Notes under the pieces: generated by a model
What the model was told of the DNA's origin: nothing
What the model saw: only the letters and a program-made list of their open reading frames with translations
The model's database searches: none
Shown here: piece by piece, positions 1 to 28,168 of the stretch
Layout: each line of letters opens with the position of its first letter
Position numbering within the stretch: position 1 is the stretch's first letter
NCBI GenBank assembly: GCA_002269645.1
Contig: NIVC01004147.1
Span: 1-58,018 of the forward strand
Source of the DNA: Macrostomum lignano
Lineage: Eukaryota
Length of the DNA: 58,018 nt
Reading direction: 5' to 3'
Translations under genes and position numbers: made by a program

Positions 1-842
1 TGTTCTAGTTTCGTTTCGCTCATCTCGACACATGTAGGCCGTGTATGCAACATCAATATCCTTCTCTATTGCCTTAAGATAGTCGCTTTAGTGCAGTCTT
101 TGGCTCAATGACTTCCAAATACAGCTCGATTCCGGTTAGCTTCACCTCCATCCTTGTGTGATCCGCCCCAGTCCACAACACTCTACTGCGATCATCTCTA
201 GTCATCTAAAGGTGTAGCTAAAGTTACTAGTCAGTCGATTAAATGTATTACAGAATCCACTCATAAATCTCAGTGTACAAATACATCAACAGACCGATAC
301 AGCGGGTTTTTAGCAGCATCATCAGCACCTTGCAATGCATAGTTGTATCTCTTCTTCCTCTTTTTATAGCCACTGTCATTGATGTCTCTTCTTTTTCATC
401 TGCAATAAAACCCGCACCACTTCCCAACTGAATAAAATCAGGATTCTCGATCAAACAATGAGCGTCATAGGACAATTCCAAAGTATGGCGATTCGCTCCA
501 ACTCTCGTGCTCCATTCGATACACTAAACTCCTTGAACATGTACGCCCAAAAGTTACTGATCAGAGCCACATCCGCATCATGCTTGTCAACGTTAGCACG
601 AGCCGCATCCGCACCACCTTTTGTCTTGAATTGAAATGTCATATGGAAGCCTCTTAAGACTGTGCACACTAACCAGAGACGAACATCCATTGTATGTAAA
701 TGTCAGTGTTTGACCTGGACCAAATTAGTTTCATTCTGGTTCTCGTGACTCGGAACTCTAACTGTGTCGCTTTGATTGTGCTATCATCACTAAAAATAGG
801 CTTGTTAATTTTGTAGAAAACTGGTGTCAGTGGGTCGTTCAT
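1..842 (-). CDS. Major capsid protein (double jelly-roll, Polinton/adintovirus type), N-terminal part, multiply frameshifted
   Basis: AAAAAATG start at 842 (MNDPLTPVFYKINKPIFSDDS). Stitched frames give ALISNFWAYMFKEFSVSNGARELE, GYKKRK, LRFMSGFCNTFNRLTSNFSYTF and VKLTGIELYLEVIEP, which follow the Polinton MCP pattern (N..F..i....ng..ie; PL...GFc..y; k..i..i.l....P). Continues beyond position 1. Confidence 0.75.
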
Positions 843-874
843 TTTTTAACTAAAAATAATAAATAAAATAAGAA

Positions 875-2029
875 ATGAAGCGGAAAAGTTCATATCATAT
901 CTCTGAACTAGAAAAGCTGGCGCAAGCAGAGAAACGAGTTACCGGACTAATCAACAAAGAACAACAATCTTACAATGAATTCGTCCAAGCAGCCACCGAA
1001 TTTCACAAACCTGGATACACAGAAGCGAAGAAAAACATCGACACTGTGAAGGAAACAATTGATGATATTCAAGAGAGCCAATTGCAAAACACATTTGGGT
1101 AAAATCCCATCTTCACCGGAACAACCACAGGCTCAGCAACCAGGACAACCAGTGCAGATGAATGTGACGGATAACTTTTTTGGCCCCGTAATGGTTGATG
1201 GAAAATATATTTTTGGAATTAGCGCCTGGCGAAAAGAAATTACCAAGGAACCGGTGGATTACAACATTGAAGTGACAAAGGAAAATATTTCAATCAATAA
1301 AGGTGTAGAAACTAAAAGAATCCCCTACACTAAAACTTTACTTGATTACATGACTAAAAATCTAGAGAAAACGTCTGAAAAGCAGCTAAAAAATTACAAA
1401 GATCTTGTTACCTTCGCTTTAGAGAGGGACATAGACATTCTCAAGAACAACGGTGTTTTGAAAGTTTTACATGAAAACAGGATTGACTTGAACAGGTTTA
1501 GAAAATACAAATACTTTAAACAATGGTTTGGTTGCCAGATCAGTTGGAAGTCATAAAATATCTAGAACAACAACAGCAGCAACCACAACAACAGCAACAA
1601 CCACAGCAACCACAACCTCCACAGCAACAAAAAACCCAGGTTGATCAAGTACTTGATCAACTTGACGCCGCAGAACCGATTCTTGTTTCGCAGTACAAAG
1701 ATACAAACCCTGATACTTGGCGACAATTAGAGCGGCTCTCCCCAGAACGAATGAAGCGAATCAATGACAGATTATTCACACCTCAACAAAGACAAGCGCC
1801 ACATGACAGTTCCTCCTCTGACCAATCATTCGAATCACCTCCAAGCTCTTCCGGAAAAGGCATGCCTGAATTCTACAAGCGGTTAGCTGTTCTTCTAGGA
1901 GCGGCAAAGACTGGAATGAAAGACGAGAATAGAAAAGAGTTCGTTCATATCCTAGACAAAATGCTTGAGAGAAAATGCATCGATAAAAGAGCAAGAGAAC
2001 TTTTGCTTTCACGGTTTAACAAAAAATAA
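875..2029 (+). CDS. Hypothetical viral protein (Q-rich), probably one gene split by two frameshifts
   Basis: Three overlapping ORFs (875, 1059, 1523). The C-terminus FYKRLAVLLGAAKTGMKDENRKEFVHILDKML resembles the RL.lL.a...aGn....E...i...L motif common in Polinton hypothetical proteins. Confidence 0.55.
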
Positions 2030-2045
2030 ATTTCTATTTAAAAAG

Positions 2046-2423
2046 ATGCCAATTATTTTCGAAAAAGACATTGACAAATACTACGACAAAGAGGAACTTA
2101 ATCTCATTAAACGCGGATCTGGACTTTTCCCTGCAGGCCACTATCCAAGAAAAGAACGCTCTGGGAATGGCCTTGCTGATTTGATCGCTCAGGGGCCAAG
2201 ATTTTTAAGGTCATTGGAGAGAAAAAGAGAACATCAAGAACGTTGCCGAAGCGGCTGGCAGTGTAGCCACAGCAGCCAAGAGATTAAAGATACGGTTAAT
2301 GAAACCCAGAAATCAATACCAGATATTCAACCCCTTGCACTGAGTGCAGATAGTGTCGATCCAGCCATCTACGCAAAGATGAGAGCTGAATATAAGAAAG
2401 GAGGCGGTTTTAAATTTGACTAA
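2046..2423 (+). CDS. Putative virion core/maturation-substrate protein with GxG motifs
   Basis: ATG at 2046 after an A-rich leader. Contains KRGSGL, RSGNGLADLIAQG and C-terminal KKGGGFKFD; probably one internal frameshift. Confidence 0.55.
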   Translation: MPIIFEKDIDKYYDKEELNLIKRGSGLFPAGHYPRKERSGNGLADLIAQGPRFLRSLERKREHQERCRSGWQCSHSSQEIKDTVNETQKSIPDIQPLALSADSVDPAIYAKMRAEYKKGGGFKFD

Positions 2424-2617
2424 TTTGGTGCACCCTGACGGTAAAAGAGGTGTGAGGGTGTAGGACTAGTCGGATGTAGGACTAGTCAAAAAAAGACACA
2501 CACAACCCGAAAAAAAGACACCACATCCGTAAAGAGACACACACATACACATCCCGCAAAGAGACACACGCGTCTTAAATACACAAGTTTAAAAAGAAAA
2601 ATTTTTTTACATAAAAA

Positions 2618-3415
2618 ATGGACTTCACAAACGACTTTCATCCCCACTGGACACGCAATCAGATAAAATTTGCTCACAACGAGATAATTCCAGGCATTTC
2701 CGATGCATTGTTGTTGGCTCATCTGGGTCAGGGAAAACCTTCAGAGTTTTTAACATGCTCCTCAGACCTGGATTCCTCGATTATGACACACTACATATCT
2801 ATTCACCCACTCTGTATCAAGATGAGTATAAAATGCTAGTAGCGGGCCTACAGAACAAACTCAACAAGGAAGATATTATTCAATGTTTTAGACATCAAAA
2901 AGACCTCAACAGCAACCCGGAAGTTGTAGCCACTGAATACGCAAAACACATCCCAGACAATGAAAAATGGCAAAACATTAAAGTTTTCACTTATGGAGAT
3001 CCACAGATAGATCCTAAAACTAAACTCTTACCTCAACCTGATGAACTAGAAAAGGGGAGAAAGCACCTGATTGTCTTTGATGACTGCATGACCGGTCCCA
3101 GAAACAGATAGAAAATTATTTCACCCGGGTAGACACAATAACTGCAATGTTATTTACATTGCCCAAAACTGGTTTGAACTGCCAAATAAAACAATTAGAG
3201 GTAACTGTAATTTGATTCTCCTTTTCCCAACCATACCACAGGATCGACTGAAACGATTTTATAATGAGGTCATTGCCCCAGCTCACATTACATATCCAGC
3301 TAAGAACTCTAACAGAACAATATCACAGGAGGAATTTGTTAACATATGCTATGAAAAGTGGAACCAACCCTATCAGTTTGTCATGATTAATAAGGAGAAA
3401 AGAATTTTACTTTAA
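2618..3415 (+). CDS. A32/FtsK-like genome-packaging ATPase (frameshifted)
   Basis: Stitched frames: RCIVVGSSGSGKT (Walker A, 2716-2739), HLIVFDDCM (Walker B), FTRGRHNNCNVIYIAQNWFELPNKTIRGNCN (A32 motif). Confidence 0.92.
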
Positions 3416-3431
3416 TTTTTTATTTAAAAAA

Positions 3432-4166
3432 ATGTCTATTAATTTTGCAGGTGAGTCAACTACAGGCAACAGCACTCTCACAACTTCCTTCCTTGATAAG
3501 CGCTACATTAACACTGATGAGGAGATCCCAGAGATCAAACTGAATAAAAACAGACTGAAACAATTAGAACGTTCCATGCACCAGTTGCAAATGAACATGG
3601 AAGATCTCAGGCTTAAAGTAGCTAGACAGAAGTTTGACAGTGATAAGCTTTATGTGCCGTTGTTAAACGCAACTAATGAACTAAGGTCAGAAATAACTTC
3701 GATAGTCTCGCAAATCAACGGCTTAAGATCATCAGTTAATCTTCTGGGAAATTCCATTGATAGACGGATGCGTATTCTTGAAGGAGGAGTTTTCACAAAC
3801 ACAGCTAAAGTGAATAATTTAGAAGAGTTCATGAACCAGTCAACAGCATTGCATGATAGAATTAAAGAAAACGTCGCAACCAACACAGTTAAAGTGAGGA
3901 ATTTAGAAGAGTTCATGAACCAGTCAACAGCGTTGCATGATAGAATTAAAGAAAAACTTGAAGCATTAAAGAGAAACGATGTATCACACAGTAGCTATCT
4001 AAACGGAATGTATAGCTCTTGGGGTAAAATACTAAGGAGGCTTAATCGTCTGGAGAGAACACTCAATCTTCGTGATATTGCTATTGATGAAGCAGAATCT
4101 ACTGCTCGTCCGGTCGTTACTGCAGATGAAATTATCAAAAAGAAAACAGATCTTCAAACCGGGTAG
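3432..4166 (+). CDS. Coiled-coil protein, candidate fibre/receptor-binding protein
   Basis: Intact 244-aa ORF with long heptad periodicity and an internal 84-nt (28-aa) duplication at 3789 and 3873. Confidence 0.6.
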   Translation: MSINFAGESTTGNSTLTTSFLDKRYINTDEEIPEIKLNKNRLKQLERSMHQLQMNMEDLRLKVARQKFDSDKLYVPLLNATNELRSEITSIVSQINGLRSSVNLLGNSIDRRMRILEGGVFTNTAKVNNLEEFMNQSTALHDRIKENVATNTVKVRNLEEFMNQSTALHDRIKEKLEALKRNDVSHSSYLNGMYSSWGKILRRLNRLERTLNLRDIAIDEAESTARPVVTADEIIKKKTDLQTG

Positions 4167-4200
4167 TTTTGTAATTTTTTTATTTTTTCTAGAGAAAAAA

Positions 4201-4912
4201 ATGGCCCAACAAAATTCTCTATACGATCAGTCTCAATACGTTGAACCTAAAATACCGACAGCACCAAACCCAATGGCACCGAATTCGAACACACAAAGCC
4301 TGGCACCGAATCTGAATGCACCCAATATGAGCAGCAAAAACTCTACCCCGTCATTACTTGTAACTCTCAACAGTTTTGACTGGTGGAGATTCAAAAAATG
4401 CGCGATGATCTTGAAAAAATATTTTCCACAACACAAAGAAAATTAAGCGCTATGACAACCACTGTAAATTTTTCGACTACAGCAATATGATTCTAGGATC
4501 TGTGTCTGTTCTAACTGGGTCTGCTGCAGCTGTCTCAGTGTTGCTAGTCATCACAGCCCCAATCGCAATCCCGCTCGGCTCTGTGGGTGCTGCATGTGGA
4601 CTTATTTCAGCAATTACTGGAGCAGTAGCGCGAAACAGGCGAAAAAAACTAAAGCAGCTACAGGAGAAGCAAGTAAAAGAGAAAGGAGTGCACACTTCAA
4701 TCATAGGGTACATTTCAAGGGCAATCGAGGATAAGCTCATTTCAGAGGATGAGTTCAAAACCATTCAGGATCTTTATGAACAATCAATTCGAATGAACTT
4801 GAACATGGTCGGTACTGATGACATGAGTCAGCTGAAAAATGAACTCGAGAAAGTTTTTCAACATTATGCGGAAAGAAAGTCGGCAAGAAGAACGGTGAGA
4901 AATGCACAATGA
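4201..4912 (+). CDS. Conserved Polinton protein with hydrophobic helical hairpin (membrane-active candidate), frameshifted
   Basis: Stitched frames: F.LVEIQKMRDDLE, then hydrophobic ILGSVSVLTGSAAAVSVLLVITAPIAIPLGSVGAACGLISAITG, basic RNRRKKLK, and ISRAIEDKLISEDEF. This layout is typical of a recurrent Polinton/adintovirus ORF. Confidence 0.6.
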
Positions 4913-4916
4913 ACCC

Positions 4917-5317
4917 CTATGAAACACAGGTACGAATAATTTCCTTGTAGGTCTTTCGTGTTTTGGTCATTGCATACAAAACAGTCATGCACAGCTCACC
5001 GCAAATATCACTGCTAAGACCTTGAAGAATAAAGTCTGAGTGGTAAATTTTTTTATTATTTTCCCCTTCATATAATTTCTTAGCTCTTCTGGTACTGCCG
5101 TCCCATAGCTATCAAAGTAATAACACTTGTGCTTGCGATCGGGATCAATCACCCAGCAAACCCAATGAGATCCTGGCTTATCGGTGGTGTCAAAGTTCAT
5201 GATGCCGCATTCCTTTCTTAGAGGAAAATCAGGCAGAGTGTCCCTCATAAATATTCCTCTAAAGTTTGGGATTTCCAGTTCGTTAGCCAAATCTTCAAGA
5301 AAGTTATTTGTCGTCAT
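4917..5317 (-). CDS. Adenain-like cysteine maturation protease (one frameshift near 5060)
   Basis: GSHW (His), YFDSYG (Asp), and after a -1 frameshift LQGLSSDICGELC (oxyanion Gln and catalytic Cys); stop TAG at 4917-4919. Confidence 0.9.
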
Positions 5318-5381
5318 TTTTATGTCACATTTTATGAGGTTTATTAAACTTTCTCTTAAACCTAAACCCAATCTCCACCTC

Positions 5382-8300
5382 CTAAACCCAACCTCCTAAG
5401 CCTAATCTCCAATGCCCGAACGGCAGACTGTTGATATTGTCATCAAAAATGAATCTCTTGTTATCTGCACCTGACAGTCCAATCTTCTTTTGCTGAATTG
5501 TGTGAATAATATGGTTTTTAGATTGTAGCTTTGAGAACTCATGAGATGTCTTTTTGTTGCAATTCAAGGCGTCTCTGTATTCAGCTTCATTAATTTCCTT
5601 CCTAACCACACGTTTCGGAATTCCCTTTGATTTTTTAATTGGGTCTGACGACTCACATTTTACAAAATAGGACTTTGCTCTCAACCCAATGAATTCAGTG
5701 ATTATGTCACCAGCAATCTCGTCCTTCATTTTCCCAATCACTTTCTTGTTAGTGGCGTCAAACACTTGATCGCCCTTCTGTGTCCTGCAAGATTCATCAT
5801 ACTCAGACAAGTCAAACAAATCTTTTTGCTGCAGCATGTCCTGATAAATGTCTTCTGTTTGAATGTCCATAATAAAACTGTCTGTGTCAGTGTACAAGAG
5901 TTTCATTTTATCCTTGTACTGCTGCTTCATGCCATAGAAGAACTGGTACATCAGACGTTTTGATTCGTCGAGTACAGTGACACCTGTATAGATCGGCTTG
6001 CGCAGCGTCACCTTAGTTTTGTAAAATATGATCACACCTAAGTAGCTATTAAAGATATGGAGTTCTTTGAATGTTGGCTTTGACATATTTGCCTGAATAA
6101 CAGCAGGCTCTGATGAGGTAACAAGTTTCAGGTTTGTTCTTTTCCGCTCATTTTCAAGAGTCTTGCCATAGACAGAGTTGTTGGCTAACTTAAAGAGGTT
6201 CTTGTCAAAGTCGTTGGTTGCTTTGGTCCTAAACTGGTGTTCTTATCAATGTAGGGTTTCATCCACGCTTCCTCTGTAAATGTAAGAGCCCGGTGAACTT
6301 TGGTGACCCTGCAACCAAGTGAGATAAAATACTGAAGCAGTTTGTAATGGATTTTGTAACGTGTCTTGTTGTTTAGATTCTGTGTTAGTTTCTCTGTATG
6401 TTCTTTTTCTGTTCCTGACAGGTGCCAAGTTCCATTAATATCATTGGGAGTTTCGATTATTTTCGGGCACTTGATGTTCTCTGGGAAGGGTGGAAAGTCA
6501 GAGAAATAGTCGTGAAGCTCTGGTGGAATGTAAACATCAACCTCATAAATGGCAGCCAATGAAAAGTCCCATTTGAATTCTGATGAGGGTAGCCATCGAA
6601 AATCTCTAACTGGAAGATCTTGACTCATCGCCCACCCGTAGAGATTATTAGCGTCCAAGTAAGTAATGTAGTTTGAGGGCTGCTCCTTATTGTAAGATTC
6701 AATGTAGGGATTGTTTGCTTTTGCATACCTGTTAACGCAAATTGAGATTCCCCCTCGCTTTGACGATTCGACAAAATTGTACATGTCAATGTCTGTAAGA
6801 AGTTCAATGTACCAATCTGGATCTTGATCCCATTTCATTTTAAGCAAAGATTCCCAGCTGTGGCAGGCAGAGACACATAATGTGCTGGATCGAGGCCATA
6901 TGCTGTGTACCAGGTATATCTGAAGGTTTCAAACACATCAGCCAGCAGAAACACATCTGTGAAGAGGTAAAGCAGGTGATACTGGAAGAAGTTTTGACAA
7001 TTAAAGTAATTATAGACATGCTTCGCGTGCTCATAGTCATTGTCAGAGATTCCAGAGTCTGTTAGCTTTGAAAAGAACTTTTCTTTTGGTGGTAAACCTT
7101 CGTCAAATACGTGATACCCAGTAATATTTTCATAGGGGTAGAAGCCTTTGGTTCTCAGGAGTTTAAATGATTCATCACTGTTGTAAATTTTACTTGCAAA
7201 CATCTTTGTATATGTACATTGTTCATCTTTTAGATTCTTGCTTAGTTCGTCTAGACTGGCAGCTAGAAATTGATATGAATCCTTCAGTCTTATCTTACCT
7301 GTACCCGAATTATCCTGTTTAATATCAACACACTTAAACTTCTCCTTGTTCTCTGCGATGCAGTCAAGGTGTATGTCTGGAATCATGCCGATTTTTTCAA
7401 CTATTAAATGCATGTCATAGTTCTTTGCGTTGTGACAAAATATCGTTAGATCATGAATGTTCGATTTTAGCTTTAGATTACAGGTGTTATGCGCTGCACC
7501 TCTAAATTTCCCAGTAAAGTGGCAGTGGTCCCTAACGGTGGGGTTTTTAATATTAGTGCAAGTTAACTGTTTCCTGCAGATGTGGCAATGAGTTGCTGAT
7601 AGGAAATTGCTTTCATCCTCCTCAGACATACTTATTGGAACAGGTTGAAGGGTGCTAATCACTTTTTGCAACTCTAACATTCTGGCAATAAACTGCTCCA
7701 CACACTGCTCTCCAAAGAAATAATTATACTCAACAAGTCCTTTTGTAGTAATAAAGTCATATGCTACTGAATTGGGGACATGTTTTTGAGTTTGAGTTCG
7801 TTTTTGAGTTTCTGGCATGATTGAGCATTCGAAATCAGCATATACAACAAATGGGAGCTTCTCCATCTTATGATAGTTCTTAAACCGGAGATACTTCTCT
7901 TCAGCTGAAGGAAGAGAGCAGTTTGTTGGGTGATCCTCGCATGATAATTCATGCTCTGCTAGTTTTTCAAAGCGTTCAGGTCCACTGTAATGTTTAAGGC
8001 ACAAGCGGCAGATGGCAACAGCCTCGTGATGATTATTCAACTGCTTGTGAATGAGTCTTGAAAGATCTTTAATCCAAACATAGTGAGCCTCCTCTAGTAA
8101 ATTACCAATCACTAGAAGATCCACTTCAGTCCGCCTTTTCCCCTCGGGATCTAAAACGTCTTTGCTACATCTGACTGGTTGAACTTTCTCAGTTTTCTCA
8201 CTCCACTCAAAGACTGTGATTCTAATTTTGTTATTAAACACTTCTTCTAGCTTTGGGATCTGAGAGATCGCCAAGCCTCCTTTATCAAACCTGATTCCCT

Positions 8301-9243
8301 TCTTTTCACATTCGATGAGATAGTAGTCGAAATAATTTTGATAATTTGAGGTTCTTTCGGGGTGGTGAGGGACACTATCATGAAGAAGTGCAGAAAGTAC
8401 TGCCCATAGAGCACAGCAATTGTCTTTATTTTTAACATTTATGCAAGCTTTTTTGCCGGTTAGCTTATGCGGGAGCTCTATATAAGAGGAGGCTTTAAGT
8501 GGGTCATATTTCATGACCATGACAGTCGCTCTTTGAATCCCTCCCACGACCCATCCGGAACCTCTGGATGTAAACGCTTCAATTTTCTTATTGACATCTT
8601 GAAGGAAAGGATCCAGTGTGTCTGTTGGGGTGAATGGCTTTGCCTTTGTTGTCATGTAATACTCGAGATGCTCAGTGGGTTTTGCAGGCATATAAAACGC
8701 AATCTTGAATGATATCTGTAGTTTAAAGGTCTTGCGTGTTTTGAGTGTGGGATCAACAACTGATTGGATGCTGTCTTTATAGTCGTAGATGTTTGCGGTG
8801 GTGTTGTTGGTGGCGTTAATTTGGTTGGTGTCGTTTATTGGGATTGAGTACTCTATGTAATGTTCTGTAAACTTCCTCTGTGCAAAATTAATCTCTTCAA
8901 TGGCAAGCTCCGACTCTTATAAATGGATTAATTGCTCTAATTTCTCTTGTTCCTGCTTATTTTGTGGGTACTTTGCTTTTTCACCAGTGAGAGTTTCGTA
9001 TTTGTTAATTAAGTTGCGACTCCTCTCTTGGTGTTCCTTTGCAGGATTTTTTATAGGCGCATACTGGTTGGATTCTAATTGATTGATGATTTCCAACTGT
9101 TTTTCATAGCTTCCCAGGTGACCAGGGTCGGTGTTAAAATTTTGCTTGCATGCTTTTCTTAGTAAATTACTTTTGTCTTGAAATGAGACGCCTTTTGAAA
9201 AATATTTGTTGACTAAATCTTTTGCTGGATTGGCTTTTGGCAT
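5382..9243 (-). CDS. Protein-primed family B DNA polymerase (~1290 aa when frameshifts near 8925, 6865 and 6235 are corrected)
   Basis: ExoI YADFE, ExoII HNAKNYD, ExoIII YLFTDVFLL, PolA YLDANNLYG, PolB KLANNSVYGK, PolC YTDTDS, endonuclease-VII-like VRDHCHFTGKFRGAAHNTCN, and a long N-terminal extension. Confidence 0.97.
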
Positions 9244-9366
9244 TTTTTCTCTAAAATAAAAAAAAATTTTGAGGGTGACCACCCTGATAGAAAAGTTGAA
9301 CTGTTTCTACATCCTATCAGTAGCGTTAGGTTTATGAAGCTGGATAAAGTGGGGTTTTAAACCTCA

Positions 9367-9813
9367 TCACATGCGCATTATTGTAAACCCAGCATTGTGC
9401 AGTGTCATGATGGCTTTGACAATGTCAGACTTGCTTACAGAATTTTCATGCTCACAATCATCACGATCGGGGCAACCATCTCCTGCCTTAATTGTTATAC
9501 CTTTGTCTCTTGCAATCTTTTGCAATTCTAGCTGGTGGGCTCTATCATTACCAGCTTTAACAGCAGTTGCTACACCTCCAGCTACACCACCTGCGGCACT
9601 TACAGCGCCTGCAATGATTGGAATAAGAGCTGCTAATGGTAGGATTCCTCCTGACTTTTCATCTGTGATGCTGTGTCTTTGTTCATTACATTGAACTATT
9701 TGCTGCGTGGGATCGATTTTTACTTTGATACCTTTAATTGATTTAAGACCTGGTTTCTTTGATTCAATGATTTTATTGAGTTTATTGATGGTTCTGGTTT
9801 CAATCTTTGTCAT
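9367..9813 (-). CDS. Adenovirus protein X (pX/mu)-like virion precursor
   Basis: KSGG|ILPLAALIPIIAGAVSAAGGVAGG closely parallels the adenovirus pX segment GGILPLLIPLIAAAIGAVPG; basic N-terminus. Confidence 0.7.
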   Translation of the reverse strand: MTKIETRTINKLNKIIESKKPGLKSIKGIKVKIDPTQQIVQCNEQRHSITDEKSGGILPLAALIPIIAGAVSAAGGVAGGVATAVKAGNDRAHQLELQKIARDKGITIKAGDGCPDRDDCEHENSVSKSDIVKAIMTLHNAGFTIMRM

Positions 9814-9830
9814 TTTTTTATTTTAATATT

Positions 9831-10868
9831 TTAATTAATTTCCGTGTCAGCTGGTATCACTAGGAGTTCAGCTCTAGTGAATGACCATGTGGGGGATTTA
9901 GGGTTAAAGGCTTGAGATAAAAAGTAATAGTCACCGGAGTCGGAGGTAAAATGTCTGTCAATTTTATGTACATCAAGGCTGAAGTATGGATCTGTAGCTC
10001 TTCTTTTGGTGTTCTTCTCTAGCTCTCCATGTAGATATAAAAAGCGTAGAAACTCAGAGTTTGTCAGTATGTATGGTGATTCAACTCCTGGAAGCTTAGG
10101 GTAGTTCGAGGTGTGTTTTGTGTTGTGTGTGTTGTGTGGGGTTGTCGTGTTGTTGTCTGTTCTATGAGATGCCTTAAGTTCGACAGTGTCTTGTTTAATT
10201 GCATGGGACGGTTTCAATCCAGTCATGCGTGTGACTTCATTGTTCAGTTGTTCTATAACAGTGGGGAGGCGGTCTGTCCATTTTGTATAGTATTGGCCCG
10301 CACTCAGTTTGAGTTCTTGTGCTGTCTGCTTAGTGAATAGTCTCTTGGCTAGAGTTAGATTGAATCTTTCCACAAAAGCCTGGTCTCTGTGCAAGTCTGT
10401 TCTGCCATAGCGAATCTCTGCATTTTTCTTTTCCATAAGGGATTTGACTGCACCCATGAATTCTTTACCAGGGTCCGTCATAAAGATTTGGGGGTATGTG
10501 AGCGGAGAGTTTTTATAAATATCTTGGAGTGCGGTTGCAACTGCTTCTGACTTCTTCGTCTTAAGCGGTCTTGCTTCCTTATATCTGGAGGCAACGTCTG
10601 TAATTGTGAGAGCATACTTGTAGCCCGAGTCATTGGGTAGAAACAGAAGATCTGCTTGGTGCGCCTCATTAGGTTTATAAATACTGAAATGGGGCCTTTC
10701 AAATTTTACTGGTGGGAAATAGACTTGAAAGACAGCCTGCTTAGAGAGCCACTTTTCTACTTTAGCTTTTGGTTCCTTACTTAGTTCTGCGAGTTTGATG
10801 ACTGCATTTTTTCCTACAAAGAATCCTTTGTCACTGTAGTAGAGCTTTTTAAGTTTCTGATCTGTCAT
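9831..10868 (-). CDS. Retroviral-type (rve) DDE integrase of Polinton class
   Basis: Intact 345-aa ORF with HQADL (D), TDPGKEF (D), VERFN (E) and C-terminal RRATDP...TRAELL; no obvious chromodomain. Confidence 0.95.
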   Translation of the reverse strand: MTDQKLKKLYYSDKGFFVGKNAVIKLAELSKEPKAKVEKWLSKQAVFQVYFPPVKFERPHFSIYKPNEAHQADLLFLPNDSGYKYALTITDVASRYKEARPLKTKKSEAVATALQDIYKNSPLTYPQIFMTDPGKEFMGAVKSLMEKKNAEIRYGRTDLHRDQAFVERFNLTLAKRLFTKQTAQELKLSAGQYYTKWTDRLPTVIEQLNNEVTRMTGLKPSHAIKQDTVELKASHRTDNNTTTPHNTHNTKHTSNYPKLPGVESPYILTNSEFLRFLYLHGELEKNTKRRATDPYFSLDVHKIDRHFTSDSGDYYFLSQAFNPKSPTWSFTRAELLVIPADTEIN

Positions 10869-10897
10869 TTTTTAAAAATAAAATTTTAAATAAAATA

Positions 10898-11293
10898 ATG
10901 CAACGCTCTGGTGGTAAGTTAGATTCACATGGACTGATAGAAAAGCTTCCTCATCCAAACAAAGGCTGGACAGTTCCCGGGTACAAATATTGCGGGCCTT
11001 TAAATCAACTTGAAATACAGTTAGATAAAAACAATAATCCAAATCCTGGGCATGAGCCTGTGAATGAGCTAGACTCTGTCTGCATGTGGCATGACGTTAA
11101 ATATAGAGATTTTCCTGAGGAGAAGAATCGCTGGGACAAAGAAATGCTTAGGAGACTAGACAATATAGGGGCTTCAAGCGGATTTCGCGAGTCTATTGCT
11201 CGGAAGCTAGTTAAAGCTGTTATTTTTAGTAAGGCAAAGTTGGGATTACCAAGGAGACATTATCATTCATTAATACCTATCTATTCTATTTGA
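10898..11293 (+). CDS. Parvovirus VP1u-like phospholipase A2 domain protein (PLA2X type)
   Basis: VPGYKYCGP (Ca-binding loop, cf. YLGPG), PVNELDSVCMWHDVKY (catalytic HD), and K.KLGL near the C-terminus. Confidence 0.88.
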   Translation: MQRSGGKLDSHGLIEKLPHPNKGWTVPGYKYCGPLNQLEIQLDKNNNPNPGHEPVNELDSVCMWHDVKYRDFPEEKNRWDKEMLRRLDNIGASSGFRESIARKLVKAVIFSKAKLGLPRRHYHSLIPIYSI

Positions 11294-11384
11294 CATGGTA
11301 TGTTTTCTAGCGACTTGCATGAGTCACTTCTATTGGATGCTAAAATTAAAACTTTTTGGCAGACGTTTTGAGCAGTTCAAATAA

Positions 11385-11700
11385 ACTAACCTCTTTTGTG
11401 CTCGCGAGAGGTCTTTTGTGTCTGAAAGTCTTTTGCGTTTTTTTTGTTACTAAATATAGATCCACGCAAGATAGTTGAGCCACTAGACTTGTACAGTGGA
11501 GAGGGTCTTTTTGATACTAAAAGCACCAAATCCAACTTAGTAAAAGACAAATCTACTTTTCATAGGACAGGTGAAAAAATGATAATTGATTTAGATGCTG
11601 TTCCAACCAGTGACTTGTCTGTGAGTTTGCATTGGTACTTACTCTTGTAATTAGGCTCGTGCGCTTTGTAATAAGAACCTGGAGAGACAACTGGAAACAT
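11385..11700 (-). CDS. Small hypothetical viral ORF not in the ORF track
   Basis: ATG at 11700 preceded by the same AAAAAATG signal as other viral genes. Reads MFPVVSPGSYYKAHEPNYKSKYQC; one in-frame TGA, then open to ~11385. Confidence 0.35.
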
Positions 11701-11867
11701 TTTTTATTGAGAATTTATTATTTTTTTTCAAAGGGTAAGGACCCTGGGTTAGGGGATTTAAAGTTTTAGGGATCTGGTTTCAACGCTTCGCGTTGTGAGT
11801 TGAATGTGGGGAGAAGAATGCAGATTTTTTTCTGATTGTTTCGAAGATGCTATGGGTGGATTTAGAG

Positions 11868-12137
11868 CTGTTATGCTCAGAGCATAAACCCTCAGAGCAT
11901 AACAGTAGGACACCTGTTATGCTCTGATTCTGTCGGGAATAATACGGATGGATTTAATGGGATTATGGAGGACGTTTTGTGAGCGAGTACGACCCCCCCC
12001 TTTTTTCTGATTCTGTCAGGGATAATATGGATGGGTTTAATGGGATTACGTTCGAAGTTTTTGGAGCAAGTGCGACCCCCTTTTTTCTGATTCTGTCAGG
12101 GATAATATGGATGGATTTAGGTGGATTATGGAGGACG
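11868..12137. repeat. Subterminal palindromes and three ~80-bp direct repeats (probable TIR interior of the virus)
   Basis: TTATGCTC-A-GAGCATAA palindrome; 14-bp inverted pair 11892-11905 / 11914-11927; CTGATTCTGTC.GG.ATAATA.GGATGG.TTTA repeats starting at 11924, 12007 and 12087. Confidence 0.75.
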
Positions 12138-12177
12138 TGAAAAATTTTGTCCCAGAAGCCCCCTCATGCCTTCTACT

Positions 12178-12385
12178 GAACTGCAACAAAACACAAACCG
12201 CAAACCAAACAGAACTGCAACAAAACACAACCGCAAACCAAACAGAACTGCAACAAAACACAAACCGCAAACCAAACAGAACTGCAACAAAACACAAACC
12301 GCAAACCAAACAGAACTGCAACAAAACACAACCGCAAACCAAACAGAACTGCAACAGAACACAACCGCAAATCAAGCGGACCTGA
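12178..12385. repeat. ~33-34-bp tandem repeat (GAACTGCAACAAAACACAAACCGCAAACCAAACA), ~6 copies
   Basis: Read directly from sequence. Confidence 0.9.
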
Positions 12386-12466
12386 AACATAACACACAAA
12401 AAACCTTTGTTTAGCAAAGGCCACTGCAACCAGGACACAACGTAACCCAACTCTGCACCATTGCAG

Positions 12467-16479: not shown

Positions 16480-17357
16480 TTTTGTCTATGGTGGCAAGGC
16501 TGGCAAAGCGGTATTTAATTTGGTCCAACAAGCATCAATTTAGTCCAAACGCTGATCGTGAGCCATTCGGCAAACTCCTGCCTTCTCGCAATCCTCTGTG
16601 GGTTGTTGCGTACCGGTGGAATATCAGCGTCTCTACGAACCATTTTCAGTCGCTTTTCCGAAATTTGATAACCAACTGGAACTGTTCCTTCAACTTCTGC
16701 TGTATTTTCTGCACCGTCAACAAAGGGTTCGTCTCAACCATAGATCTTATATTCTATAAGATACAAGATCTATGGTCTCAACTGCATCGAGTAGCAGTTG
16801 GATCTGAGCATGGATGAAGGAATAGAAAGGATCGCTCATCTGTAATCGAGTCTAGGGCCAAGACTTCCTAAAAATTGGGATATTTCGCCCCATGAATTTC
16901 ATTGGCTGCTTGAATTTAATAATACTCGTAGTCCCCCTAAGTTCTTACTGGCTGAAGCTTGTACGCGGGGGGAATTCACGATGTCTAACGTTAATCGTGA
17001 CTTTGGAATTTCCCCCGCGTACAAGCTGCAGCCAGTAAGAACTTTGGGGGGACTATTATTAAATTCCAGCAGCCAATGAAATTCATGGGGGGAATATCCC
17101 AATTTTAAAGAAGTCTTGGCCGTAGACTCGCTGTCAGATGAGCGATCCTTTCTATTCCTTCATCCATGGATCTCGAGCAACTTGCCTTGACGATCGCTAC
17201 CCTTTAGCAAGTGATATCTGCCGGCAGTGGTTTCAACGCAATCTTGCAACCTTGCAATGTCCAGCGCTTCGATCACAAGCCAATGGCATTCGCTCGACAG
17301 CCTAGCATAGGGTCCACAATTCTGGGGATGATGATGCTCCTCTGCAGCCTTTGCCAA
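16480..17357 (-). pseudogene. Decayed Tc1/IS630-like transposase N-terminal remnant interrupted by a MITE
   Basis: Removing the MITE joins RQGKLLE|IQLLL...VETNPLLTVQKIQQKL; a shifted frame gives IPPVRNNPQRIARRQEFAEW. Confidence 0.5.
16809..17168. mobile_element. 360-bp foldback MITE
   Basis: Near-perfect palindrome CATGGATGAAGGAATAG...CTATTCCTTCATCCATG; flanks GATCTGAG and GATCTCGAG form an 8-9-bp TSD with one indel. Confidence 0.88.
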
Positions 17358-18127: not shown

Positions 18128-20216
18128 ATGGCCTTGCAACTGCCGCCCCCAGCATCATTCAGCAGTAGAGAAGACCCACCTACAGCGCTACCTGGCGGCC
18201 AGCGGCATCACCAATGAGGCCCAAAAGCGGGAAGTTCTGCTCTACACGGCCGGAAAGGAAATCAGCGATATGTACAAAGAGATCGCTAACAGCGAAACTA
18301 TCGCAGAAGGCCATAGTGCAAACACTTATCGAGACTTTCAACAAACAGTTTAAAGGCCGCGACAAAGTCGTCTTCATCAGATATCAATTCCGGAATTGCC
18401 TTCGAGAGGATGTCGAACAGATCAACTCATTGTACAGCAGACTGTGGAGCGCATCAGAAGCGTGCCAGTTTGGAGACCTGCAGCAGTCACTGATCCGATA
18501 TCAAATCGTGGCCTGTTGCCGCAGCGACGCCCTCAGGAAGCGACTCTTAAACGTGCCGAACATCAGCCTCGCAGATACTCTACAGCTGGCAAGAACTCAC
18601 GAGGCGGCCGAAAAGCAAGCCGCCATCATGTCGAAAAGCGCTGCCACCTCCGAAGACGTCAACATGCCGCGCCGCCGCCAGCCAGGTGGGTCAGCCAGTC
18701 CGCGAGCCGCCAAAGACTGACAGCAAATGCATCCGCTGCGGAGAGTCTGGACACCGAAGCTGCAACAAGGTCCAGGGCAAGAAGTGCGATAGCTGTGGCA
18801 AGATGAACCACCTCGCTAAGGCCTGTCTCAGTAGCCGTTCGCGCATCAACGCACTTGGCCACGACTCGGACGAGCCGACCGACCAGTCATGCGAGGAAGT
18901 GTTCGGCACGCTGGAAGACAAGAACGGGAGCGCAAAGTTCGTCATCAGCATCAACGGCCATGCAGTCAGGGCGCTCATCGACAGCGGAGGGAGCTGCAAC
19001 GTGCTCGACCTGTGCACCTTCAGGCGGATCAGCAACCCGGGCACCAGGATCGAGCCCTGCAGCACAAGGGTTTTCCCACTTGGCGCAAGCCAACCGCTGG
19101 CCGTTGAGGGACAAGAACTCTGGCAAGGATCAACGGCAAGGGCTGGTGGCCGAGCATCAAGGAGGACGTGCAGTACTGAGTGGGCAGCTGCGAGAACTGC
19201 CAGAGTCGCAAGGTACCTACCTCATCAGCATCAGCGGGCGCCGCTGCAGTGCAACTCGGTGCCGTCACTGCCCTGGGAGATCGTGCAGGTGGACATCAAG
19301 GGGCCCCTGCCAGCCACCGATACCGGCCTTACATACATCATCTGCTTCACCGATGTGTTTTCCAAGTGGGTCGAGGCGGTCCCAGTCAGCGAAGACGGTG
19401 GCCCAGGCGATGCTGCTGAGCGTCATTCTTGGCATGAGTCACCGGAGGTCATCCACTCCGACCAAGGCCGCCAGTTCGAGAGCGAGGCTTTCCGCGAGTT
19501 GTGCCTCGTGCTGGACATTCGCAAGACCAGGACGACACCGTTACACCCGAGCGGCAATCCAGCGGTTCAACCGTAGGCTCGGTGACATGCTGGCCGCCTA
19601 CTGCACGGAGCAGCAAGATCGGTGGGCGCACTACCTGCCGTTCGTCATCTGGGCGTACAACTCGTCCGTCCACAGCACCACCAAGCTGTCGCCGTACGCA
19701 GTGCTGCACGGTCGCGACCCCCGGATACCGATGGAGCTCAGCTGGCCCACCACTGGAGAGCAGCAGGGCGGGCCCGACGAGTTGGCCGACGCCCGGCCCG
19801 GTCTGCAGCTGGTGCACGAGCCCCAGTCATCAAGGAAGCGGCAGTACGACAAGCGCGCCGACTTCGCGCCGCTTCGGGTGGGCCAGCTGGTGCTGCTCAG
19901 CAACACGGCGATGCGGAAGGGCAAGGCGCTGCGGCAGCGGTAGCTGGGACCCTACAGAGTCCTGGAAAAGCTGGGGCCCATCACCTACCGCATCTCCAAG
20001 CGCACCGGGTGACGGCCGAGCCCGATGGTGCACCACGACCGCCTGAAGGCCTTCACATCGCAGCGGCCCCAGGGGGCCGGCCCGCCGCCTGTTTTGACTT
20101 CGCCTCCAGACAGCCCGGAGAGCCTGGACGGCGACGGTGACCTGCGGCAGAACTGGGAGGAGCTCTCTTCAAGGAGCCGGAGGCTCCCGGTCTGGGAGGG
20201 ACCGAAGGCCGCCTGA
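18128..20216 (+). mobile_element. Degenerate Ty3/Gypsy internal region: gag, protease, integrase; RT and RNase H absent
   Basis: Gag RDKVVF.RYQF...CQFGDL...LRKRLL, CCHC knuckles CIRCGESGH and CDSCGKMNHLAKAC, protease LIDSGGS, integrase WWP...C..CQ, VDIKGP, HSDQGRQF, GPYRV. PBS-like TGGCGGCG near 17988. Confidence 0.88.
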
Positions 20217-21486: not shown

Positions 21487-22351
21487 ACAGACAGCGTATT
21501 GAACTGTCGCATCTGCACGGCCTTAAAATACAGAAATCACCCAGTGTGACGCACCGGCTGTAGGAAAGATGCTTCTTGACTTTTTGAACGAAACGTAACC
21601 TATCCATATATTCAAGCCAAAGAAAAGCTGAAATGTTTCAAACCTGAGTTTTGCCTGATTTTTTACGAAAGAGCATTTGAAAGTCTAAAAAGCAAATTAT
21701 AGAAAATAAAAACGCAAAAAGATTTACCTGAAGAAACTAACAAAGTCTTGTGAACTACATGTATGAGTTCTAACCGCGTGAATTGCATCCCGACTCTAAA
21801 AGTTTGCACTATTGTTAACTACTTTACAAAAAATGCACGCGAAGGCGTATTCAGCATGCCAGTGAAGTATGAGACAGACTAGGCCCATGGGCTAAGGTCT
21901 GCGATGCTTCACGCCTGCCCCTATCTTCAGCAGGTCAAGGCTGGTGGGAGGTCTGCACCCTCTATTTGCCTCTGGCAGCCGCAGACCCCCCCCACGCTGT
22001 CTCGCAAGTCGACCCAGGGTACTCGTCCCCGCGTGTGTTCAAGGCAGTCCCTAGGGCTGCTGGACAGACTGGGCTCCGGCGCTGGCGACCCTATCCAGTG
22101 GCTTCGGCCGAATTTGGGTATGCGGGTCTGGCTCGCCAACCTGCAGGCCGTGGTACTGCTCAACGTACTCTCTAATGCCTAAGGTGTTGACCGTGCCGAT
22201 GGGCTGGAAGGCCGGGGAGTAGTCCGGTCGCTAGCGGTCCCCCTCCTGGTGTCGGGCCAGCCTTGAGGGTGCTATTGGCCTACTGCCCGGTCAGGTGGAG
22301 CGGCCGGGTGGGTACCGCGCCCCTTTGAGGGTAGCCCACCAACCTTTTATC

Positions 22352-23872
22352 ATGGCCTTCGAGTCGCCTATGGATAACCAAACTAATTCTAGGGACGGGG
22401 ACCCTTCTAAACCCCAACCTCAGTCCGAAGGACCGGCCGGCCCTGCTGGCAGATCCCAACCGACTGATTCAACTGTGGCAAAGGAAGGACCGGCTGGCTC
22501 TGCTGGCAGATCCGACCAGAGCTACCAAACTCATAATACCCAAAGACCTGCCAGCTCCGCTGGTGGATCTAAGGGAACCGCGAGCTCTGAGCCTAAAGGA
22601 CCGGCCAAATCTGGCAGATCCGATGAAGCTCAGCGAGCTCGGCTTGAGCGCAAACGCGCTAAACAACGCGCCAAAAGGCAGGCCAAGAAGGGAGCTGCGG
22701 GGGCCAAAGCGGCGGCGTCCACCATGGATGCTGAAGCGACTGGCGTCCCAAGGCAACCAGACGGGCCGGCCGGTGGAAGCTCCGGTAGTTCAGCGGCGGC
22801 GCTCCCTGGAGATGCTGCTGCGGCTGCTGAGGCCGAAACCACGGCGCAACAAATGGCCACTGCCAACAAGGAGGTTCCTTCGGGAGCTACCTTTGCGGCG
22901 AAGGCCAAGGCCAAAATCCCGGGAGTGATCATCCAAGGTCGCGACCAGGACTGGACCACTGATCAGCTTCAAAAAGTGTGGAGTGCTGTTGACTCCTATC
23001 TGATTGAGCTGACTGTCGAGGAGGGAATCTCCATCGGCATTGAGCGGATGGTGCTGCGAAGCACATTCGTTCTTATTGCTCCTAGCAGCGAGGAGGACGC
23101 TCGGCAGCTGCTTCAGCGGCTACCGACGGTCTCCTTGGATGCTGACCTTGGCGGAGCTCTTTTTCTTCGCGAGGGCCAGCGTCCAAAGACGATACCCTAT
23201 GTGGTTTTCGTCCCTGCTAAGAGCACCGCAGCTGGACCAGACGTTATTCGCCGGGTCCTACTGCGTCTGAACCCCGACCTCCCTGCTAGTGGACTGGTGT
23301 ATCACCGTAAAGTCCGCAGGGGGGAGACGGGCAACTCAATTGTCCTCGGCCTTTCCAGCACTTGGGCGAGTCGGTACCCTAATGGATCCTCTTTCCAGCT
23401 GGGTGCCCTCAAGCTCAAGATGCGCCGAGGAAAGTCTGCCAAAGGGAAGGCTACTGCCAACCCCGGCATCTCCGGCAAGAGCGGGGCGCAGTCTAAGGCC
23501 CAAGGAAAGGCGCAAGCCGATCCCAAAGCCAAAGCTGCATCTCGCCCCTCTGCTAGCAGCAGTTCGGCGACCGCGGTAACGGCTCCGGTCAAGCTCCGGG
23601 AACCAAACCTGCCAGTCGGAGAAGGAGTTGAGGACGAGGCCGGGTCTTCGGAATCCGAGCTCTCCTCAGCCACCCTGGTGGGGTCTGAAGGTAAAGATGC
23701 AGGTGAGGAAGCTTCCTCCATCCTGTCATCGGAGCCTAAGGACTCTGCTGGGGGGCCGGTGGGGGTGAGGAGGCCATGGACGTCGACCAACTCCCATCTC
23801 CCAGTCAAGCCCCAGCGGCCTGGGACGAGGACGATCTGTTGTCCAAGTCTCCTTGATGGCCCTGGGCTCTAG
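22352..23872 (+). CDS. LINE ORF1 (gag-like RNA-binding protein)
   Basis: Long ORF directly upstream of ORF2, with basic RKRAKQRAKRQAKK and an RRM-like central alpha/beta region; no clear CCHC knuckle. Confidence 0.8.
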   Translation: MAFESPMDNQTNSRDGDPSKPQPQSEGPAGPAGRSQPTDSTVAKEGPAGSAGRSDQSYQTHNTQRPASSAGGSKGTASSEPKGPAKSGRSDEAQRARLERKRAKQRAKRQAKKGAAGAKAAASTMDAEATGVPRQPDGPAGGSSGSSAAALPGDAAAAAEAETTAQQMATANKEVPSGATFAAKAKAKIPGVIIQGRDQDWTTDQLQKVWSAVDSYLIELTVEEGISIGIERMVLRSTFVLIAPSSEEDARQLLQRLPTVSLDADLGGALFLREGQRPKTIPYVVFVPAKSTAAGPDVIRRVLLRLNPDLPASGLVYHRKVRRGETGNSIVLGLSSTWASRYPNGSSFQLGALKLKMRRGKSAKGKATANPGISGKSGAQSKAQGKAQADPKAKAASRPSASSSSATAVTAPVKLREPNLPVGEGVEDEAGSSESELSSATLVGSEGKDAGEEASSILSSEPKDSAGGPVGVRRPWTSTNSHLPVKPQRPGTRTICCPSLLDGPGL

Positions 23873-23895
23873 CCAGAAATTGCATTTAATACAGT

Positions 23896-26800
23896 ATGAA
23901 TAAGCTCCACGCTGCCAAAGGAGCGACATTCTGTCTGCAAATTAATTTACAGCATTGCGTATCTGCGTCAGTAAATCTGATGAAGATTGCTGAGCTGTAC
24001 AGGCCAGGCCTCATCCTGATCCAGGAACCCTGGATGCGCAACGGTAAGTTGCCCAACATTCCCTCTGGCTACTCTGATTTTTATGTGTGTGGCCCGGGGA
24101 ACAGCCGCCCTAGAGCGGCTATCCTCGCTGCTAGCCATCTCCAGGCTTGGCTGAGGACTGATCTCTCTGATGGAGACCTTTGCGTCATCCAATCTAATCA
24201 TTTCTCTCCGCGTACGTGTCTTGTTGCCTCGGTTTATATCCCAGGCGACAGAGACCCTGCTCCTGAGAGTTTACTGCGCCTCGCGCAGTACTGCGAGTCC
24301 CAGAACGCTGAGCTGTGCTTAGGGGGCGACCTCAACGCGCACCACAAGCACTGGGGCAGCAAAGATACCAACACTAGAGGAGAGGAGCTTCTGGCCCTCA
24401 TCTCTAACACAAACCTCATGCTCTGCAACCGCGGCAGCACTCCTACCTTTAATAATGGCAGATGGACCGAGGTCCTCGACGCCACACTCGTTACCCCAAG
24501 ACTCTTTTACAGAGTTGAGGAGTGGAGAGTCTGGTCTGAGGAGCCCTCCCTGTCTGACCACTGCTTTATCGCCTTTAACATCGCGGACACTAAAACCCAG
24601 TCTCCGATCACTTGGAGGCGCAATATCCGCAACACTGATTGGGCGGCCTACAAGGCTGCCCTTGATCTGCACCTGCAGGAACTCACGGACTTACGTCCGA
24701 TTGAGACCTGCGAGGATGTGGATCATATGGCTGAGACGCTGACAGGTTGCATTATTGCAGCCTACGTAGCGGCTTGTCCTGCTCGCGCCTACAAAGGCAA
24801 GACCTCGGCGCCGTGGTGGAACCCGGAGCTGGGGAAACTCAGGCGGAAGGCCAAAAGCCTTCATCGCCGTGCCATGAAGACCGGAAACCCGGAGGACATG
24901 GAGCTTTTCCGGCAAGCCTCCCGCAATTTCAAATCTGAAGTGCGCAAGGCCAAGGAATGTAAGTGGCGCCAATTCTGCAATGAATTGGATCAAGACAGAC
25001 CTACTTCCAGGCTTGTCAAGGCCCTTACAATGGACAAAATGTCCAAATTAGCCATGATCAAAAAAGATGATGGCTCTCTTACTAAAGACCCTGAAGAAGT
25101 GCTTCAGCATATGCTTAGCACATTCTTCCCGAGGGTACCTACTGCTAGACCGGAGCCCAACCATTCGATGGATGGAGCCACCCTAGCGGCGGGCATTGTC
25201 ACTGAAGACCTAATCGCTCGTGCGGTCAGAACCTTCAAACCCTTCAAATCTCCTGGACCTGATGGTATCTACCCTGTTCTCCTTCGTGAAGCAGCCAAGA
25301 TACCCTCGTTCCTGAGACTCACCCGCAATCTTATGCGGGCCTCTATCCAGCTGGGATACGTTCCCAAATGCTGGACTGAAGCTCGGGTAGTCTTTATTCC
25401 CAAACCTGGGAAGGGTGACTACCAAAGCGTCAAGGCCTTCCGGCCTATTAGCTTAACGTCAGCGATGCTTAAGCTCACTGAGAGGCTTATTCTCTGGCGG
25501 CTGCTGTCCTGCGAGCTGACAGCGATGCCCCTCAGCAATAATCAGCACGCCTTCCGTACCGGGAGGTCGACTGACAGCGCCCTGCATGCGATTGTCGAGA
25601 AGATTGAAAGGGCGGTACTGGGTGACGGTTACGCTCTGGCTCTCTTTCTTGACATTGTTGGCGCCTTCGACAACGTTATCTTTGAAGCGTTTCAGAGGGC
25701 CCTTCAAAATCGCAAAGCTCATGCTACCCTCATACGGTGGATCATGTACATGATCTCCAACCGTACGGTCACTGCCCAACTTCTTGGGCAAACTGCCTCC
25801 ACCAGAGTCTGTAAGGGTGGACCCCAAGGCGGAGTCCTCACCCCGACGCTCTGGAACCTGGTCATGGACGCTCTTTTGAGTGACTCCCGACCCGACCCCG
25901 TCTTCAAAGTCGGGTATGCTGATGACGTCACGGCCATTGTGGCAGGACCGTCTCCCAGCACGCTCAGGGATCTGATGCAGAGCTTTATCCGCAAAGCAGA
26001 ATCCTGGGCCAATGACAATGGTCTGGAACTCTCTGAGCCCAAAACCGTTGCCATTATGTTTACCAGCAGACTACGCTGGAACATACGTCCTCTGCAGCTC
26101 TACGGCAGAGATATTGCCTTCGCGCACCAGACCAGATGTCTCGGGGTCATACTTGACCACCGGCTCAACTGGTCCTCCCACGTGAAAGCAAAAGCCAAGC
26201 GTGCCTCAGCCATCCTGGCCCAGCTCCGACGAGCACTTGGCACTTCTTGGGGTCTATCCCCAAAGCGGCTTTGGTGGATCTATACTTCCGTAGTTAGACC
26301 TGCCATTACGTACGCCTCTGTTGTCTGGGTTAGCGCTACCCAGGTCAAAAGCCATGCAGACCTGCTCAACACGATCCAAGGCAGAGCGTGTAGGCTCATC
26401 TGCAACGCCACCAGGTCCACGCCCTTTGCTGGCATGGGGGCCTTCCTTAATCTTCCGCCTCTTGACCTCTTCATCAGGGGTGAGGCGGCTAGAACGACGC
26501 GGCGTCTAATTGATGCCGGCGTCAAATTCATTTACATGAGAGCACCTGCTAAGCGGAACCTTGTCCCGCATAGCGATCTGTGCCTCAACTTTCTCAACGA
26601 GTGTCAGGCCAATCGCGTCTTCACCGATGGCATTGCCTCAACGCTCAACCTGAGACAGCGCTACTCCGTAGCTATCGACCGCGCGATAACATCAATGACC
26701 AATGGAACCCTGGTGAGCTTCATTGCTACACCGACGGTTCTAAGCAGTCAGCCAACACCGGCTTTGGTGTTGGAATCTTTCTGAACGGGAGGGTCATCGC

Positions 26801-27635: not shown

Positions 27636-28168
27636 CGACGCATCGGCCGTTCAGGGACTAGCGGAATGGGCGCTCGCGCCTTCCCGCTGTGTCCCCTCCG
27701 GGACAGCCCTGCAGCTAAGTCAAAGTAAGTCAAAAGGCTAAAAGCACTATCGAAATTTTGTACGGCTAAAAACAGCTCGCTGCATCTCTGTTACTAATAA
27801 ACAGTTTTTGACGCAGCCACCTCTCGAAGATGAAAGTTTCGAAACACAGTGTCTACTTTTAGCAAAAAAACTATGCTGCTTCATATTTGAAAAGGCGCAA
27901 TTAATAATCGTTTGCGTTGTGGAAGTCTTACGTAGACAATATCCCATTTCCCCGAATGCTTTCGTCTTCTTATTCGACGAAAGGGAATTGACCAACGAGA
28001 ATAGATGGCGGGATCTGGAGAGGGAGCTTTTGTGAGCTGCCCCAGTCAGCTAGTTAGTTGAAGACATGCGCTGACTTCCGCTTCCCTGCTGTTAAGACTG
28101 CAAATGCTCTACTCCGCCTCCGCGCGGCACCTAAGCGACTCAACAGCCAGTAGCAACCAGTTGTTGTC

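Follow-up and report, generated by a model that had tools for sequence, protein, structure and literature searches.

The 58,018-nucleotide contig NIVC01004147.1 of Macrostomum lignano (C4147; the window) carries a cassette of virus-type genes at its left end. An earlier note on this DNA had read the cassette as a near-complete adintovirus-type element that might still be intact. The window very probably holds a single integrated copy, likely no longer able to replicate, of a Polinton/Maverick family that is young and high in copy number and whose members likely replicate, swap modules, and reintegrate. The value of the locus is in this family, which is young and recombining, has a divergent capsid, and leaves replication by-products; the window copy is ordinary and damaged.

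The element fills the first 12,178 bases of the window. Because the window is an entire contig of the 764-Mb assembly, the left end of the element was found only in other contigs of the same insertion site. Contig C4576, whose element and right flank align with the window at 95-99.5%, contributes the complete major capsid protein (MCP) gene, a penton-sized open reading frame (ORF), and the left terminal inverted repeat (TIR), as the earlier note had expected of the DNA farther left. A third assembly of the site, C4218, represents the left half. Taken together from the window and C4576, the full element has 14,203 bp, TIRs, and a 6-bp target-site duplication (TSD). Its ends, AGTAGA, are near (AG)3 and (AGT)2 but match neither exactly; ends of the AG/AGT type with a 6-bp TSD are present. 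The cassette was also correctly described as compact and AT-rich: its GC content is approximately 37-41%, whereas the remainder of the window is mostly at 41-64%, and its right end was mapped to position 12178. CpG was 0.60 (depleted) in positions 1-12178 and 0.93 (undepleted) in the host flanks. The sequence CGNCG occurred 3 times in the window element versus 19 expected from base composition, a shortage for which the CpG value of 0.6 largely accounts, and no avoidance of GGNCC was found there (14 seen versus 19 expected). The 33-bp host satellite at the insertion site was rejected as a preferred target, since only 2 of 30 loci have the satellite and both are the window site. No group I intron was matched in Rfam among 14 loci of the family.

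Pfam, fold, and homolog searches confirmed the gene set proposed for an adintovirus-type Polinton, namely MCP, packaging ATPase, maturation protease, protein-primed DNA polymerase B (pPolB), integrase, PLA2, and pX (Table 1). The ATPase had a weak Pfam match to Pox_A32 (PF04665) and contains what we take to be Walker-like motifs. The protease weakly matched PF00770, and adenain was its best PDB match (E 0.047); both assignments also draw on position and selection. The match of pPolB to PF03175 (E 1.9e-5) was under the Pfam cut-off, and that to endonuclease VII was weak. Among 1036 long homologs of pPolB, the best 120 were 31-43% identical, and the named ones came from insects and molluscs. Motifs that we take to be those of the exonuclease and polymerase domains are present. 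A 129-aa ORF at 8917-9306 is the pPolB N-terminus, being in frame with pPolB and forming one joint ORF with it in other copies. The integrase frame is open, as the earlier note had stated. The fibre-like reading given there was not confirmed, the ORF at 3432..4166 having only weak coiled-coil matches. The small Gly-rich ORF is likely a virion core protein, judging from its composition and position, and the ORF with a hydrophobic segment, assigned to no family, is likely membrane-associated.

Modeled with 96 homologs, the MCP folded confidently as a double jelly roll, at a pLDDT of 93.5. In Foldseek, the Sputnik MCP was matched with an E value of 1.6e-18, and the best structural matches were the capsids of Sputnik, PBCV-1, and mavirus; PF21738 scored 23 bits, under its cut-off. 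All 50 listed BFVD matches were at most 12% identical, and no named Alpha or Beta hexon was among them. At the sequence level, seven relatives were found at 71-77%, two at 43-44%, two more near 45%, and the remainder at 30% or less. The seven closest are encoded on short ENA, JGI, and Logan contigs. No named MCP relative was found, none of 29 looked-up clusters having an informative name, and scans of viral and metagenome contigs, which are insensitive, yielded no relative with genomic context. Between the MCP gene and the left TIR lies the penton-like ORF; eight of 15 copies have it at a length of 287 aa. Its Atlas score to Preplasmiviricota proteins was 0.98, with recognition slightly below threshold, and a PDB sequence search for it gave no match.

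If the window copy were intact, every break in it, including a stop codon in pPolB, would have to be an assembly error. Over 9.5 kb, 41 gap columns but 7 mismatches separate C4147 from C4576, a pattern typical of long-read consensus error. Many indels in the MCP part are private to the C4147 assembly. Frame breaks were counted wherever a frame-changing indel sets the window apart from 60% or more of the copies that cover the place at other sites (15 examined). Twenty-one of 28 such places are absent from both other assemblies of the site and four more from one, two precede start codons, and one is present in all three. The last is the protease break, which lies in a homopolymer-rich stretch and whose reality is uncertain. 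Contigs from short reads, which pool all family copies, had indels at the listed shared places in 4 of 4 runs. These results favour assembly error for much of the damage. However, the pPolB stop is also present in C4576 and is a substitution, a rare error class here. It occurs at none of 15 other sites; only C4147 and C4576 (2 of 40 scored matches to the PolB piece) are identical across it, and the run contigs covering it (3 of 4 runs) differ from the stop sequence. In addition, where other copies have the PLA2 3' end and an accessory slot, the window has 320 bp matching a different family with AGTAGT ends, and the PLA2 junction is 100% identical in both assemblies carrying it. Across 6.45 kb, 26 substitutions are private to the site, of which 12 are silent, 13 are missense, and 1 is nonsense, a distribution that fits some neutral decay after insertion; the window insertion is therefore young and likely decaying.

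An intact window copy is accordingly highly improbable. The pPolB stop and the PLA2 replacement look real, and on these lesions the copy is likely replication-dead; at best, it could supply capsid or integrase products, or a helper could move it. An intact Maverick has all core ORFs uninterrupted (PMC8097293), whereas the window copy has the pPolB stop in both covering assemblies and the less certain protease break in all three. The earlier note had ascribed the breaks to single-base deletions; missing and extra bases both occur, and the in-frame stop had been overlooked. Its description of PLA2 as unbroken holds for the reading frame, which is open, but not for the 3' end conserved elsewhere, which is replaced from 11251 on.

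First-look searches of the genome gave 297 candidates for the integrase, 299 for the ATPase, 651 for the TIR end, and 256 for the PolB piece, and the family is estimated at about 250-300 assembly copies. Because several sites were assembled two or three times, we infer 100-150 sites. At one site (C4261 versus C1527), the integrase gene holds a 7-kb insertion on just one haplotype, and the repeat assemblies therefore include real haplotypes. The flanks of the copies are diverse, indicating dispersed sites, and of nine other copies whose two ends were read, eight have a 6-bp TSD, as in integrase-type insertion. All 98 scored MCP matches were full length at 97-100% identity, 95 of them without a stop, and one copy has a perfect terminal match of 499 bp. 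Family members also abut or nest in members of the same family (C2829:83152 and C1098:29333-34390).

The ratio of nonsynonymous to synonymous substitution (dN/dS) was obtained by simple pairwise counting between the window and 8 copies in 15 segments. It was 0.04-0.37 in 14 of the segments, one being saturated, with values of 0.08 for MCP, 0.12 for the penton-like gene, and 0.04 for the ATPase. Counts of this kind show purifying selection on the family genes. That it extends to MCP, the penton-like gene, and the ATPase hints at packaging in particles. The family backbone is near-identical (dS 0.04-0.09; MCP and PolB, 0.04-0.08). Inside it, the ATPase occurs as two alleles separated by a dS of approximately 1.6 and a dN of 0.07; the window-type allele was present in 39 of 40 scored ATPase matches. 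When the ATPase type was combined with the type of orf384, all four combinations were found in 16 copies (5, 5, 5, and 1), the proportions of which are not frequencies because the copies were picked by similarity. The family is mosaic in its alleles.

Two mirror-image derivatives of the family were identified. A left-left element of 11.3 kb is present in two assemblies (C1652:28604-39932 and C276:289398-300645); its arms are 99.85% identical over 4.7 kb, with 4 mismatches. It has no PolB, integrase, or protease and would therefore have needed help in trans if it formed before insertion. A right-right element of 11.5 kb (C975:122373-133902), found in one assembly only, has arms 99.2% identical over 5.4 kb and no capsid genes. 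Both have an exact 6-bp TSD, left flanks that differ from the right flanks, and asymmetric centres. Copy-back or snap-back defective genomes occur in strand-displacing DNA viruses such as adenovirus and adeno-associated virus, and palindromic non-autonomous Mavericks occur in nematodes. The mirror elements resemble snap-back genomes in having two identical arms from one end, an asymmetric centre, and dependence on a helper; they differ in being integrated with 6-bp duplications. No description of mirror-image Polinton derivatives was found in the literature searched for Polintons and palindromes or in the available part of 10.1101/2024.01.15.575659. An element of a second family with AGTAGT ends (C1157 approximately 303450-317110, and C3314) also has arms in inverted orientation, which are 99.9% identical for 3 kb or more, and contains the 320-bp segment seen at window positions 11251-11571.

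By analogy with Polinton and adenovirus biology (in part PMC11161782), a terminal-protein-primed polymerase would copy a linear molecule via strand displacement, passing through an extrachromosomal linear intermediate. Template switching would then yield either snap-back molecules or module swaps between co-resident genomes. The element integrase would insert whole or defective molecules into the chromosome, with defective copies receiving polymerase and integrase in trans. Particles would be formed, as selection on the capsid, penton-like, and ATPase genes implies; PLA2 would serve entry and the protease maturation.

Several observations weigh against the preferred reading. None of the copies was shown to have all of its genes open. 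Among 15 copies, pPolB ORFs reached 1059 aa at most, out of approximately 1290, although assembly indels and 10-kb fetch boundaries shorten them. Insertions of 2-7 kb were found in 6 of 8 copies examined, and in some copies the two TIRs diverge by as much as approximately 9%. The dN/dS values reflect past, not present, selection and come from non-independent copies. C4218 does not reach the pPolB stop, and the fold of the penton-like ORF, made without an alignment, had a pLDDT of 33. Free ends, virions, and transcripts were not observed; the public runs were seen as contigs, and no run holding the family is on record as RNA. It is quite possible, though not the reading that we favour, that a single recent burst from an exogenous virus population gave rise to copies that are now fully endogenous and decaying, with mosaics and selection inherited and replication at an end. 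Many nested insertions and the lack of a complete open pPolB in 15 copies agree with such a burst, as do the 71-77% MCP relatives, which show related lineages outside this genome. The 4 mismatches in 4.7 kb of mirror arms, the 499-bp perfect terminal match, and the 95 open MCP genes, however, favour very recent events, even though they cannot show current ones.

The mirror elements would be uninformative on free replication if chromosomal repair or template switching had produced them once the element was integrated, or if they were read artefacts. Both chromosomes and long-read libraries can give rise to long palindromes, and the right-right element is in a single assembly. This origin is nevertheless unlikely for elements with differing flanks, exact 6-bp duplications, and asymmetric centres, one of which was recovered in two contigs. 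It is less likely still that the family is solely an intracellular self-synthesising transposon whose capsid genes hitch-hike or persist because of some other role, with no infectious particle. In its favour, neither particles nor horizontal transfer has been shown, all 20 public runs holding the family share one organism label, and the insensitive viral and metagenome scans gave no relative. The constraint on the MCP, penton-like, and ATPase genes nonetheless equals that on the polymerase, and selection of this type is taken as a sign of particle formation in PMC8097293. The term virion-producing in the earlier note is an inference. Returning to the preferred reading of a young family that likely replicates and reintegrates, we add only tentatively, as rather unlikely, that it is still replicating as a true virus with a divergent capsid lineage, recombining by modules even with another Polinton family, and that its snap-back genomes are inserted by a helper integrase.

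As read from its sequence, the window element has the defining parts of a Polinton/Maverick: pPolB, an rve integrase, a double-jelly-roll MCP, ATPase and protease, and TIRs with a 6-bp TSD, as well as a likely minor capsid gene, although the penton is unproven. Its length falls inside the range of 12.7-24.6 kb for vertebrate Polintons/Mavericks (PMC8097293 and PMC10748475). The accessory region beside the core, the purifying selection, the many degraded copies, and the gene exchange between elements are likewise shared (PMC8097293 and PMC10748475). Gene exchange among Polintons is known (PMC10748475 and PMC8502044); the present family differs in the fine-scale shuffling of dS-saturated alleles on a near-identical backbone, in the mirror derivatives with TSDs, and in a capsid lineage for which the searches gave no named relative. 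The pPolB N-terminus has Cys and His motifs, which we assume to fit a vOTU domain. With PF03175 below its cut-off, these motifs place the polymerase in the Beta (OTU-PolB) class, an assignment by score and motif rather than by a tree with named references; the concept of a vOTU domain in PolB is from PMC11161782. The divergent PolB, adenain, FtsK-type ATPase, and integrase recall Beta adintoviruses (PMC8502044). On the other hand, PLA2 is tied to Alpha virion modules (PMC8502044), the window element has PLA2, and its pX is a separate gene unfused to PLA2. No gasdermin match was obtained in the Pfam scan, so that the GasderminX/cupiennin-like accessory of Beta members was not found. The hexon and penton of Beta members cluster with the Terrapene cognates; for the window element, no named reference appeared among the sequence matches or the listed BFVD matches. 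Because PLA2 marks Alpha modules and the capsid matches no named reference, the element was not filed as a Beta adintovirus. The double-jelly-roll capsid is also shared with Polinton-like viruses (PLVs), most of which have no pPolB and rve integrase (PMC5499653). Since the window element, in an animal host, has both, the PLV label used earlier was rejected in its strict sense.

The suggestion that the lineage is poorly described fared unevenly. Flatworm Polinton polymerases have been tabulated in bulk (748, from 8 of 73 genomes; PMC10748475), and family members may be among those rows; what is left of the suggestion is at most the capsid lineage and the family dynamics. No description of the family was found in the Polinton/Maverick literature searched with flatworm and planarian terms, a search that did not extend to Repbase, Dfam, or bioRxiv supplements, and flatworm terms are absent from the available part of the PMC8502044 supplement. 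Animal Mavericks encode capsid genes, and particles had not been observed (PMC8097293). With approximately 100 open capsid genes, a selected virion module, fresh replication by-products, and public runs from at least seven studies, the family is a good place to seek particles. The mirror derivatives would be an anatomical trace of strand-displacement replication, which is usually just assumed. If the family is a still-replicating virus, a much-sequenced animal would be a natural system for testing virion formation by animal Polintons.

Table 1. Features of the window and their coordinates
Feature	Position	Strand	Remarks
Major capsid protein (MCP), 5' two thirds	1..842	-	428 aa in other assemblies of the site; truncated by contig end; fold pLDDT 93.5
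Conserved ORF of ~384 aa (orf384)	875..2029	+	Two deeply diverged allele types within the family
Small basic Gly-rich ORF	2046..2423	+	No Pfam match
A32/FtsK-type packaging ATPase	2618..3415	+	266 aa in most copies; window copy is the minority allele
Coiled-coil ORF, 244 aa	3432..4166	+	84-bp internal repeat; length differs between copies
ORF with hydrophobic segment	4201..4912	+	Sequence and Pfam scan
Adenain-like maturation protease	4917..5314	-	Frame break near 5054-5064 in all three site assemblies
pPolB, divergent Beta class	5382..9243	-	Endonuclease VII-like insert
In-frame stop codon within pPolB	8917..8919	-	Private to the window insertion site
ORF with adenovirus pX-like segment	9367..9813	-	PF05829, 30 bits, cut-off 25
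rve integrase, open frame	9831..10868	-	PF00665, 36.8 bits, cut-off 32.6
Parvovirus-type PLA2 gene	10898..11293	+	Over Pfam cut-off; 3' end departs from other copies at ~11248
Foreign segment	11251..11571		87-93% identical to the end region of another Polinton-type family in the same genome; occupies place of PLA2 3' end and accessory slot of other copies
Right TIR	11624..12178		~555 bp, 87% to left TIR, 83-bp subrepeats; terminus 5'-AGTAGA
6-bp target-site duplication	12179..12184	+	
33-bp host satellite, insertion target	12179..12396		Runs on past the element's left end
MITE-like element	16809-17168		360 bp, nearly palindromic
Degraded LTR-retrotransposon remnant	18169-20140		Zinc knuckle, protease, rve
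Non-LTR retrotransposon	22235-27635		ORF1 and endonuclease/reverse-transcriptase ORF, then RNase H-like ORF (label by eye)
DEG/ENaC channel ORF (PF00858)	28154-29353		
Calmodulin-like EF-hand protein ORF	37765-38310		
Low-complexity ORF, 1312 aa	49762-53700		
P-element/THAP-like transposase remnant	55541-57908		Between 95-bp inverted repeats

The accessory slot, from PLA2 to the element end, is variable at approximately 1.0-2.9 kb and encodes helical proteins of 131-273 aa with 15-32% mutual identity (7 copies). Pfam, PHROG, PDB, and homolog searches with these proteins were all without a match, and Atlas scored 0.91 with low recognition. Four of them form one cluster; three more are alike by eye but not clearly above shuffles. 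Six of 16 copies share an 80-aa ORF that begins in the TIR. A search for COX1, aimed at the mitochondrial code of the host, gave nothing above the cut-off. The host DNA to the right of the element, with a DEG/ENaC channel, an EF-hand gene, and retrotransposons, fits an animal.

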